A DNA stretch of 64,000 bases, from NCBI RefSeq assembly GCF_003334385.1, contig NZ_QOWN01000024.1. One strand, written 5' to 3'. How positions within the stretch are numbered: position 1 is the stretch's first letter; each line of letters starts with the position of its first letter. Positions 39,004-40,016 of this stretch are shown one piece after another. Below the pieces are notes generated by a model. The model saw only the letters and a list, made by a program, of their open reading frames with translations, had not been told where the DNA came from and did no database searches. The translations under genes were made by a program, and so were the position numbers. The DNA is from Escherichia coli (GTDB taxonomy: Bacteria; Pseudomonadota; Gammaproteobacteria; Enterobacterales; Enterobacteriaceae).

Positions 39004-39337
39004 AGACCGGTTGGTGGCAGTACTGACCGGTCTGTGATGAAAGATTAATTTCACCTTAAATCCTGGTGCTGTTAGGATGCTGACGTTTTTCGGCTACACC
39101 ATTCAGATTATGCAAATAAATATCTCTGAATATAATATATTCATAGCACCCATAATTCATCCTGGGCGATAACTAAACCATTTTTGAGTAATAAATGAAA
39201 CAACTGCAACACTCTTATTATTTCTGGAAAACGCCTCGCAAAAACAAAACAACATGCAAAAATCCGCTTTTTTTAAATGATTTTCCGGCGTAATTTTCGC
39301 ACATACATTAATGAGTAATATATGTAAGGTATTGGTA

Positions 39338-39556
39338 ATGGCGATGAATACGGTTTTTCTTCATTTATCAGAAGAGGCAATTAAACGGCTGAACAAGCTT
39401 CGGGGCTGGCGTAAGGTTTCACGATCTGCAATTTTACGCGAAGCGGTAGAGCAATATCTGGAACGTCAGCAATTCCCGGTGCGTAAAGCAAAGGGAGGCA
39501 GGCAAAAGGGGGAGGTAGTTGGTGTTGATGATCAGTGTAAGGAGCATAAGGAATGA
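39338..39556 (+). CDS. yiiE: ribbon-helix-helix (CopG/Arc-like) small protein YiiE
   Basis: 72 aa from Met MAMNTVFLHL; shares the LREAVEQYL core with downstream YiiF. Confidence 0.8.
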   Translation: MAMNTVFLHLSEEAIKRLNKLRGWRKVSRSAILREAVEQYLERQQFPVRKAKGGRQKGEVVGVDDQCKEHKE

Positions 39557-39797
39557 CAAAAATTTTTCATTCTTGAATATAAAAAACAGATGCCCTTATT
39601 CTGGTATTAATACAAGGCTGTTTTACTTGAACTTATAATAACTGCAACTGTTACATCATATCTGGAAAACGCCTCGCAAAAATAAAAAATGATGCGTAAA
39701 TGAGCTTTCTTTAAAGATTCGGCAAGGGTACTTTTCTCTCCATAGATTCAAAAATGATATTGGCGAGATATTTATGAACTCTCTGGCAGGTATAGAT

Positions 39798-40016
39798 ATG
39801 GGCAGAATTTTACTCGATTTATCGAATGAGGTGATTAAGCAACTTGATGATCTCGAGGTGCAGCGTAATCTTCCTCGTGCGGACCTATTAAGGGAAGCGG
39901 TAGATCAATACCTGATAAATCAATCGCAAACAGCAAGAACCAGTGTTCCTGGCATCTGGCAAGGGTGTGAGGAAGATGGTGTCGAATATCAGCGTAAGCT
40001 GCGCGAGGAATGGTAA
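39798..40016 (+). CDS. yiiF: ribbon-helix-helix small protein YiiF (paralog of YiiE)
   Basis: 72 aa from Met MGRILLDL; LREAVDQYL core. Confidence 0.8.

Follow-up and report, generated by a model that had tools for sequence, protein, structure and literature searches.

Tandem genes yiiE and yiiF of Escherichia coli as probable orphaned VapB antitoxin genes, each preceded by a predicted CRP-S site

Results

Two ribbon-helix-helix genes in a tandem duplication

The stretch of DNA analyzed here comprises 64,000 nucleotides of Escherichia coli contig NZ_QOWN01000024.1, referred to below as the window, and it contains two small neighboring genes, yiiE and yiiF, that encode ribbon-helix-helix (RHH) proteins and are each preceded by a nearly identical upstream block. 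Over window bases 39000–40100 the sequence agrees with that of E. coli K-12 BW25113 at 100% of positions, and the names yiiE and yiiF are those of the BW25113 annotation. A preliminary description of the window, made from its letters, had proposed a duplicated regulatory cassette of orphan RHH regulators that share a common operator or promoter. The analysis presented here points to a more specific history, in which yiiE and yiiF are probably the orphaned VapB genes of a duplicated, toxin-decayed vapBC module and the block in front of each is most probably a CRP-S site, the type of low-affinity, asymmetric CRP site that would need the co-activator Sxy (TfoX). The coordinates of the individual features are collected in Table 1.

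Both proteins possess an N-terminal RHH DNA-binding domain, which matches the Pfam family RHH_1 strongly in YiiE (Table 1) and weakly in YiiF (7e-3); orthologs of YiiF carry the precomputed assignment PF01402, and the NMR structure of YiiF is 2K5J. The initial observation of two 72-residue RHH paralogs ~440 bp apart with a shared LREAV(E/D)QYL core is correct in its coordinates and is borne out by alignment, in which YiiE and YiiF are 41% identical over 56 residues (E = 3e-12). The predicted DNA-reading β-strands of the two proteins differ and read NTVFLHL in YiiE and GRILLDL in YiiF.

Pairwise alignment upholds the near-identity of the upstream blocks as well. A repeat search resolved a direct repeat of 100 nt with 73% identity (39199–39298 and 39637–39736; start-to-start spacing 438 bp) and a second direct repeat, also with 73% identity, that corresponds to the 3′ ends of yiiE and yiiF (39501–39555 and 39958–40012). 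The 22-mer TCTGGAAAACGCCTCGCAAAAA has exactly two occurrences in the 64 kb of the window (39223–39244 and 39661–39682), compared with 0.00 expected from shuffles. End-to-end alignment of both units with MAFFT shows that the duplicated piece is ~440 bp of upstream region and gene, arranged head to tail, such that the duplication unit extends from ~25 bp to the left of the CRP-S site into the toxin gene vapC, with both the coding and the non-coding parts being homologous. The block is not of low complexity, and the similarity spans this ~440-bp unit rather than a short low-complexity stretch. Sequence comparison places the duplication within Escherichia, because homologs of YiiE were found in Escherichia only. 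Natural YiiE/YiiF chimeras are present in E. coli and E. albertii (P0100, P0103, P0106, P0107, P0209, P0210, P0217 and P0188) and combine the RHH domain of YiiE with the toxin-binding tail of YiiF, or the reciprocal, with the crossover at LREAV(D/E)QYL. The existence of these chimeras indicates that the tandem units still undergo unequal recombination.

Table 1 Features of the yiiE-yiiF locus in window coordinates.
Feature	Position	Strand	Basis or remark
CRP-S-type 22-bp site 1; core TGCGAGGCGTTTTCCA at 39225-39240	39222..39243	-	10/10 match to published E. coli CRP-S motif
TAATTT, -10-like hexamer of predicted distal promoter P1 of yiiE	39291..39296	+	66 nt after start of core 16-mer
yiiE, 72-aa RHH protein (CopG/VapB-type), orphan antitoxin paralog	39338..39556	+	Pfam RHH_1 1.6e-11; RefSeq annotation
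vapC (PIN toxin) remnant after yiiE; 84-bp stub, ATG overlapping yiiE stop codon (ATGA)	39553..39636	+	
E. coli-specific left flank of repeat, AATAACTGCAACTGTTACATCAT; junction between duplication units	39637..39659	+	Repeat start; not conserved in other genera
CRP-S-type 22-bp site 2; core TGCGAGGCGTTTTCCA at 39663-39678	39660..39681	-	10/10 match; orthologous to vapBC-locus site elsewhere
TACTTT, -10-like hexamer of predicted P1 of yiiF	39729..39734	+	Same +66 spacing as orthologs
Degenerate proximal element of K-12 yiiF, reading ATGATATTGGCGAGATATTTATG	39754..39776	+	Alignment with intact loci
yiiF, 80-aa form in RefSeq and PDB 2K5J (72-aa form starts at 39798)	39774..40016	+	Ortholog of VapB antitoxin
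5′ stub of vapC, ATG sharing one base with yiiF stop codon as at intact loci	40016..40028	+	Alignment with E. coli 2016C-3878 and C. freundii
REP/BIME-type palindromic repeats in place of vapC body	40060..40200	.	Inverted repeats; sub-threshold Rfam REP-family matches
Internal and 3′ vapC fragments (nt 60-88, 311-333 and 349-375 of intact gene)	40222..40309	+	blastn-short 86%, 96% and 100%

Toxin gene fragments after both yiiE and yiiF

An intact PIN toxin gene was not found after yiiE or yiiF in the window, where only fragments were recovered. The earlier remark that no toxin partner is evident therefore holds for intact open reading frames and fails for remnants, since pieces of a PIN gene (vapC) follow both yiiE and yiiF. 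The stub after yiiE includes a fragment with the PDAxIL motif at 39587–39604 that is identical to intact E. coli vapC at 17 of 18 positions (blastn-short), and the remnant was also recovered by tblastn with a Citrobacter PIN protein. In ST131, a longer N-terminal vapC remnant is readable after yiiE and begins MTKRVVLINSNVL. After yiiF, the 5′ stub of vapC is followed by the REP/BIME segment, which matches 6–52 places per E. coli genome, and then by vapC fragments at 40222–40250 and 40260–40309, to which tblastn aligns VVTRNTRD..GVVTPYEL and the stop; the vapC stop codon itself lies at 40307–40309. Because PIN-gene fragments follow both genes, the toxin partner has been lost and was not missing from the beginning, and because only fragments remain, yiiE and yiiF of K-12 are VapB members by descent and not a working pair. 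In the upstream unit, vapC homology ends at ~39633, just ahead of the restart of the repeat, which suggests that this toxin copy was truncated from the outset by a duplicated segment that ended inside vapC.

The yiiD-fdhE locus is a hot spot of rearrangement. Of 5,426 E. coli genomes, 3,844 have 80% or more of the 1.1-kb K-12 segment spanning both genes. In strain SCU-112, yiiF is gone, with the deletion located right after CCTCGC, and a higB-like/nadS pair lies upstream. In ST131 (L002:735-2348), two minus-strand genes lie between yiiE and the CRP-S block of yiiF and encode a DUF6708-domain protein and a 246-aa hypothetical protein; neither gene has an NCBIfam match, and homology to K-12 resumes exactly at TAATAACTGCAAC (39637), 25 bp before the block.

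Intact vapBC modules at the same locus in other genomes

A search for homologous cassettes adjoining toxins in other genomes, which the preliminary description had put forward as a check, returned RHH-PIN pairs at the same locus in other genera and in ~1% of E. coli. YiiF has relatives with 61–79% identity in Citrobacter, Pseudocitrobacter, Enterobacter, Salmonella diarizonae, Klebsiella, Superficieibacter, Kluyvera, Trabulsiella, Cedecea, Kosakonia, Lelliottia and Franconibacter, and it is 72–79% identical to RHH proteins whose genes have a PIN gene next to them at the syntenic locus. The RHH gene is positioned between yiiD (with or without an α/β-hydrolase gene) and fdhE in most of the 37 loci scanned, where a full-length PIN gene follows the YiiF ortholog directly with overlapping stop and start codons; syntenic pairs with the same overlap were also observed in Citrobacter and on one Serratia-labelled contig. 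Overall, at least 12 enterobacterial genera have the intact module between yiiD and fdhE. Among complete E. coli genomes, 57 of 5,426 (~1%) carry an annotated VapC family toxin gene after the yiiF allele, and the gene order in E. coli 2016C-3878 is yiiE, yiiF-like, vapC and fdhE.

At this locus K. pneumoniae encodes a protein with 100% identity to PDB 7BY2_A, the partner of ‘Ribonuclease VapC’ (7BY2_B) in the crystal, and E. coli VapC matches 7BY2_B with E = 9e-63. The structural study of K. pneumoniae VapBC is that of Kang et al. 2020 (J Med Chem), as cited in PMC11117207. YiiF is the positional ortholog of this VapB (PDB 7BY2/7BY3) at yiiD-fdhE and is 68% identical to it, and both proteins consist of an N-terminal RHH domain followed by a W/Y-rich toxin-binding tail at the C-terminus. 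The K-12 locus differs from that of K. pneumoniae in that the toxin is missing, the Escherichia module is tandemly duplicated, and the tail of YiiE has lost its aromatic residues, with the last codon changed from TGG to a TGA stop. The expectation that RHH proteins are usually antitoxins was thus right for this kind of protein, the YiiF ortholog being the VapB of VapBC, and the term orphan is apt in the sense of orphaned VapB antitoxins, given the intact RHH-PIN pair elsewhere and the vapC fragments here. Loci of the enterobacterial yiiF/vapB type were also seen on contigs labelled Bacillus coahuilensis m4-4 (100% identical to K-12), uncultured Robinsoniella sp. and Chryseobacterium sp. 18061; such contigs probably represent contamination or wrong labels in public assemblies.

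Selection was estimated from four E. coli alleles, as ratios of nonsynonymous to synonymous change (pN/pS or dN/dS). All 33 differences in the RHH domain of YiiE are synonymous and 0 are nonsynonymous (pN/pS 0), and the nonsynonymous changes of this protein fall exclusively in the former toxin-binding tail (pN/pS 0.67). The corresponding values for YiiF are 0.18 in the RHH domain and 0.53 in the tail, and the neighboring core gene fdhE, taken for comparison, has a dN/dS of ≤0.05. This strict purifying selection on the DNA-binding domain of YiiE suggests that a function has been kept rather than that the gene is simply decaying, and YiiE looks like a solo antitoxin retained for its DNA-binding domain.

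A conserved block with a perfect match to the CRP-S motif

On the minus strand, the blocks of both yiiE and yiiF read TGCGA-GGCGTT-TTCCA, and the E. coli CRP-S motif is T4G5C6G7A8-6N-T15T16C17C18A19 (Sinha et al. 2009, as quoted in Sondberg et al. 2019, PMC6728893). This motif is asymmetric and active in either orientation (PMC6728893), and RegulonDB describes the CRP-Sxy site as asymmetric with one half-site conserved (PMC10767902). Enterobacterial CRP-S half-sites have C6 or G6 and never T6 (PMC1635313), a rule that holds at both the yiiE and the yiiF site. The two blocks are the only perfect CRP-S matches in the window, where 0.24 would be expected.

The match extends to other genomes, such that the CRP-S motif is perfect in 27 of 33 orthologous loci and has one mismatch in 3 of 33. 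The block TTCTGGAAAG-nnn-CTCGCAAAAgtgaa exhibits a column identity of ~0.9 over 22 orthologous vapBC loci, compared with ~0.3 in the intergenic flanks, and its conservation has no 3-nt periodicity. The conservation pattern is TGGAA-AGnnnC-TCGCA, with variation limited to the three central bases of the spacer; conserved half-sites around a free spacer center are the footprint expected of a CRP-S site. The shared upstream block is therefore real and represents a selectively conserved cis-element. Its distance to the gene is fixed in most loci, and it is kept both in genomes without the α/β-hydrolase gene (Trabulsiella, Pseudocitrobacter, K. spallanzanii and K-12) and where a higB-like/nadS cassette replaces vapBC. 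Taken as a regulatory site, the block is most probably a CRP-S site, the predicted binder of which is a host activator rather than an RHH protein.

Predicted promoters and a proximal conserved element

In 29 orthologous vapBC loci, as in the two copies of K-12, a TAnnTT hexamer starts 65–66 nt downstream of the beginning of the core 16-mer and is a candidate −10 element of a distal promoter, P1. Relative to the start predicted from this conserved hexamer, the center of the site lies at ~−70; class I CRP-S promoters have sites near −62, −73 and −100 (PMC1635313). Intact loci also carry a proximal conserved element, ATGATATACTGGAGGTATATATG, that is composed of the palindrome ATATAC-N5-GTATAT with 6-bp arms, an extended −10 (TGATATACT) and a GGAGG Shine-Dalgarno sequence, with the palindrome overlapping the latter two. 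This element is invariant wherever vapC is intact and is mutated in yiiF of both K-12 and ST131, neither of which has vapC. The proximal palindrome is likely to be an autoregulatory operator of VapB or VapBC and to mark a second promoter, P2.

Further upstream, a weak RpoS-holoenzyme genomic-SELEX peak reported between yiiD and yiiE converts to ~38593 in the window (region ~38540–38700). The yiiD-yiiE spacer (38486–39337) is AT-rich and contains a terminator-like hairpin at 39004–39031, and a possible third, very decayed vapC-like stretch lies at ~39125–39195.

Copies of the element at other loci

The 30-mer consensus of the block has a median of 4 matches per E. coli genome. An additional copy that is universal in E. 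coli is the perfect motif in the divergent radC-coaBC intergenic region, found in essentially all E. coli, where the CRP-S core TGCGAGGCGCTTTCCA (radC strand) precedes radC by 67–93 bp and coaBC by ~100 bp (L165:1501-1545). RadC is among the CRP-S-regulated proteins of the competence regulon, and TGCGA is a CRP-S half-site (PMC1635313). In Klebsiella and Enterobacter the radC-coaBC site reads TGCGT-N6-TCGCA, and the right half-site is invariant across genera; radC-coaBC is the only locus outside yiiE/yiiF at which conservation was analyzed, and the Klebsiella and Enterobacter sequences were drawn from PLSDB ‘plasmid’ records that are chromosomal. The radC core abuts GTGAATCTCAGGTGAA, which on the other strand is TTCAC-N6-TTCAC and corresponds to the CreB ‘cre-tag’, and radC is reported to belong to the Cre regulon; the second GTGAA is E. 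coli-specific. As a side observation on the database, PLSDB records CP125156.1 (5.37 Mb), NZ_OL790696.1 (4.8 Mb), NZ_CP077309.1 and LR134124.1 are chromosomes or chromosome fragments with radC, coaBC and fdhE.

Other copies lie ~100–140 bp upstream of higB-like/nadS, rhuM and yhcG. In some E. coli (SCU-112, L001:803-2280) and in other enterobacteria, an α/β-hydrolase gene is followed by the CRP-S block and then by genes for a higB-like toxin and a NadS (helix-turn-helix) antitoxin, a cassette that has its own palindrome GTACGTCAATGACGTAC, a TTGTTA-N17-TATAAT promoter and two small open reading frames after it. This pair stands in the place of vapBC, and the cassette downstream of the block has thus been exchanged while the block itself was kept. 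In Enterobacter hormaechei (L172:1206-2634), the last codons (..AGKRLAKS..) of a gene for a SymE-family type I toxin contain the 20-nt core, an arrangement also present on at least ~19 metagenome contigs among the matches listed. The gene rhuM lies ~100 nt downstream of this symE-internal core, an extended −10-like element, TGGCATACT, comes after the core, and the locus has a defense-island context with Drt3b and a HicB-family gene nearby. Copies of TGGAAAGnnnCTCGCA in intergenic DNA were found in the gltD-yhcG spacer of E. coli PN43 (L170:1501-1522), where yhcG is a PD-(D/E)XK nuclease gene, near uspF in K. pneumoniae, near the 3′ end of clpA with a 150-aa open reading frame, and adjoining the operator/promoter palindrome of a dinJ ortholog (L124). 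The metagenome pattern scan was pattern-biased and, with 17 specified bases, yielded chance matches for the most part, as expected; recurrent or annotated contexts alone were used.

Discussion

We hypothesize that an ancestral vapBC module, consisting of an RHH antitoxin and a PIN ribonuclease toxin, resided at yiiD-fdhE of Enterobacteriaceae and then underwent tandem duplication, and that both toxin genes of the K-12 lineage were destroyed, leaving the 84-bp stub after yiiE and a gutted, partly REP-replaced copy after yiiF. Under conditions of high cAMP that also induce Sxy, CRP-Sxy would recruit RNA polymerase to P1 via a class I mechanism. Activation of P1 would raise antitoxin transcription; originally it would have driven the vapBC operon, and in K-12 it would drive solo antitoxin genes only. 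VapB or VapBC would in addition autoregulate through the proximal palindrome and P2, and this arm of the control would have decayed at K-12 yiiF. The duplication, the VapB orthology, the toxin remnants, the motif match with its conservation across genera and the purifying selection on the YiiE DNA-binding domain come directly from the comparisons above. The binding of CRP-Sxy, the positions of the promoters and starts, and the role of the palindrome are predictions made from sequence.

Several observations weigh against this scheme. The −35 region of the predicted P1 is poor, which is expected for an activator-dependent promoter and is no proof of one, and a simple σ70 scan of the locus returned nothing convincing. 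P1 and the proximal extended −10 are two candidate promoters that cannot be told apart by inspection of the DNA. The distance from site to gene is 14–15 bp longer in Franconibacter, and gene conversion between the repeats, instead of selection acting on each site, could account for part of the identity of the two K-12 copies. Moreover, the K-12 locus may be largely silent, because it is reported to be H-NS-bound and SlyA-responsive (PMC5797941), with a 2.5-fold induction of yiiE when SlyA is overexpressed. Open papers in which yiiE and yiiF are mentioned contain no link of these genes to VapBC, Sxy or CRP. The 2009 survey of Sinha et al. reportedly comprises 34 CRP-S transcription units, and yiiE or yiiF may already be among them.

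An alternative hypothesis is that the block is an autoregulatory operator bound by YiiE or YiiF (VapB), perhaps along with the proximal palindrome. In its favor, autorepression is usual among RHH antitoxins, the block accompanies vapB at a fixed distance, and the pentamer CTGGA is common to the block and the proximal element. However, the block core is identical in front of two proteins whose predicted β-strands differ, the block also precedes genes that have no RHH protein (radC/coaBC, rhuM, yhcG and higB-like/nadS), and it is not a repeated short RHH-type half-site. The center-to-center gap of 92 bp to the palindrome also amounts to a non-integral number of helical turns and shifts by 14–15 bp in Franconibacter, and we regard the operator hypothesis as distinctly unlikely. 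The initial proposal of a common operator or promoter therefore survives, in spirit, as a promoter element, and does not stand as an RHH operator given the different β-strands, the unrelated genes that the block precedes and the CRP-S match. A site for a CRP-family or other host factor that acts without Sxy is likewise unlikely. Such a site could be an ordinary weak CRP site or the target of a regulator that prefers an 11-bp direct repeat (CTGGAAA/CTCGCAA), and bipartite conservation with a variable spacer suits a tandem-repeat-binding regulator equally well. This possibility is opposed by the 10/10 match, which includes both the conserved and the ‘less conserved’ CRP-S half-sites, by the absence of T6 and by the presence of the site at radC, a gene of the competence regulon.

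If the block had instead no regulatory role, being a junction of recombination or duplication or a ‘mobile promoter’ fragment carried along by hitch-hiking, with its copies kept identical by gene conversion, then the clustering of rearrangement end-points nearby (the yiiF deletion of SCU-112 and the ST131 insertion 25 bp before the block), the loss of the hydrolase gene flush with the block in three genera, and the YiiE/YiiF chimeras, which show that the repeats recombine, would all be accounted for. Gene conversion cannot explain, however, why single-copy orthologs in at least 12 genera keep the block at ~0.9 within flanks of ~0.3, and where substitutions occur they keep to the arrangement of half-sites and spacer typical of a protein-binding site, so that this explanation is very unlikely. 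The correctly spaced GG and GC of TGGAAA-N5-CTCGCA (GG-N10-GC spacing), with the variable bases in the spacer, raise the idea of a σ54 (−24/−12) promoter, yet the block agrees with the consensus TGGCAC-N5-TTGCA at 8 of 12 positions, 86 sites in the window score as well or better, and the radC sites of Klebsiella and Enterobacter lack the GG. The MG1655 σ54 ChIP-seq table of Bonocora et al. 2015 also has an adjacent intragenic site in fdoI and none at yiiE or yiiF (PMC4591121), and we consider a σ54 promoter extremely improbable. That intragenic site, IS47 in the same table, is TGGCGCGAATTCTGCA at window 41738–41753 (minus strand) inside fdoI and is conserved in five retrieved loci (L001–L005). 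A leader peptide or structured RNA leader is scarcely credible. Short open reading frames do cross the block, MKQLQHSYYFWKTPRK... in copy 1 and ..SGKRLAK.. in another frame, and the 3′ end of a symE-family gene contains these 20 nt in Enterobacter, but frames and start codons are not conserved between the copies or across genera, and the invariant parts show no third-position variation. RNAalifold found no consensus RNA structure in the block on either strand across 23 orthologous upstream regions, and Rfam scans of the locus and of the radC-coaBC spacer gave no match on the block. The term leader element, read as an RNA leader, consequently has to be given up, there being no conserved structure and no coding periodicity. 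Other candidates were rejected outright. A tblastn alignment of the frame ..IITATVTSYLENAS.. to the PIN C-terminus had suggested a vapC remnant, which is ruled out since nucleotide homology stops at ~39633 and single-copy genera have the block without an upstream vapC; a part of the divergent α/β-hydrolase promoter is ruled out because the block persists where the hydrolase gene is absent; and marbox, FadR, SlmA, CpxR, PhoB-type, IHF, Fis and LexA motifs did not fit.

The preferred reading of the block as a CRP-S site of a former vapBC module can be compared with toxin-antitoxin loci for which CRP-Sxy control is documented, namely E. coli hicAB P1, higBA, chpSB and hokD and H. influenzae toxTA (PMC11951105, PMC6957337, PMC7167474). 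Overexpression of sxy induces higBA, chpSB and hokD (PMC11951105), and hicAB and toxTA combine a distal CRP-S promoter P1 with an antitoxin-repressed P2 (PMC11951105, PMC6957337, PMC7167474). The same layout is predicted here, with a distal CRP-S P1 and a conserved palindrome over a gene-proximal second −10. Unlike hicAB and toxTA, which are HicA/HicB and RelE/ParE-like systems, the module described here is an RHH-PIN pair with the antitoxin gene first, and K-12 retains the antitoxin alone. CRP-S sites of the γ-proteobacterial competence regulon (ppdD, yrfD/hofM, sbmC, sxy and radC, among others) resemble the yiiE and yiiF sites in their 22-bp length, TGCGA/TTCCA halves, C6 or G6 and never T6, A/T-rich flanks and, if the predicted start is correct, a class I distance, and the core is identical at radC-coaBC; the yiiE and yiiF sites differ in that they would serve a toxin-antitoxin relic and not a DNA-uptake gene. 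As in solo antitoxins generally, the antitoxin is kept after toxin loss and the toxin-binding region is under relaxed constraint, and what sets this locus apart is the presence of two paralogous solo genes, each with an intact predicted host-activator site, and the strictly constrained DNA-binding domain of YiiE.

In this light, yiiE and yiiF gain a concrete history as solo VapB antitoxins and a testable regulation, the predicted switch-on by CRP-Sxy. A PIN-family module found in at least 12 genera would join the short list of toxin-antitoxin loci wired to a competence regulator (hicAB, toxTA, higBA and chpSB). The locus also offers a natural series that leads from the intact module through toxin loss with a decayed operator to a solo antitoxin with a strictly conserved DNA-binding domain, and this series bears on two questions: what CRP-Sxy control is for at toxin-antitoxin loci, and what role an antitoxin has after its toxin is lost. 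Current understanding is not overturned by these results, which provide a clean example of an already known kind of system. A broader and rather doubtful possibility is that YiiE, and perhaps YiiF, has been domesticated as an RHH regulator induced by Sxy and CRP, and that CRP-S sites are a recurrent, selected input to toxin-antitoxin and defense cassettes. If that were true, the cassettes with such an input in Enterobacteriaceae would include vapBC, higB-like/nadS, dinJ, symE-rhuM and yhcG, and DNA-uptake and starvation signaling would be coupled to the expression of toxin-antitoxin and defense genes.

One further sequence was observed beside the block at loci that have the divergent α/β-hydrolase gene. 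This canonical LexA-box-like sequence, CTGTATGAATGTACAG or CTGTATGGATATACAG, is absent from the K-12 window, which is without the hydrolase gene; it is positioned ~17 nt from the hydrolase start codon and ~70 nt from the CRP-S block and is conserved across genera in most aligned loci.

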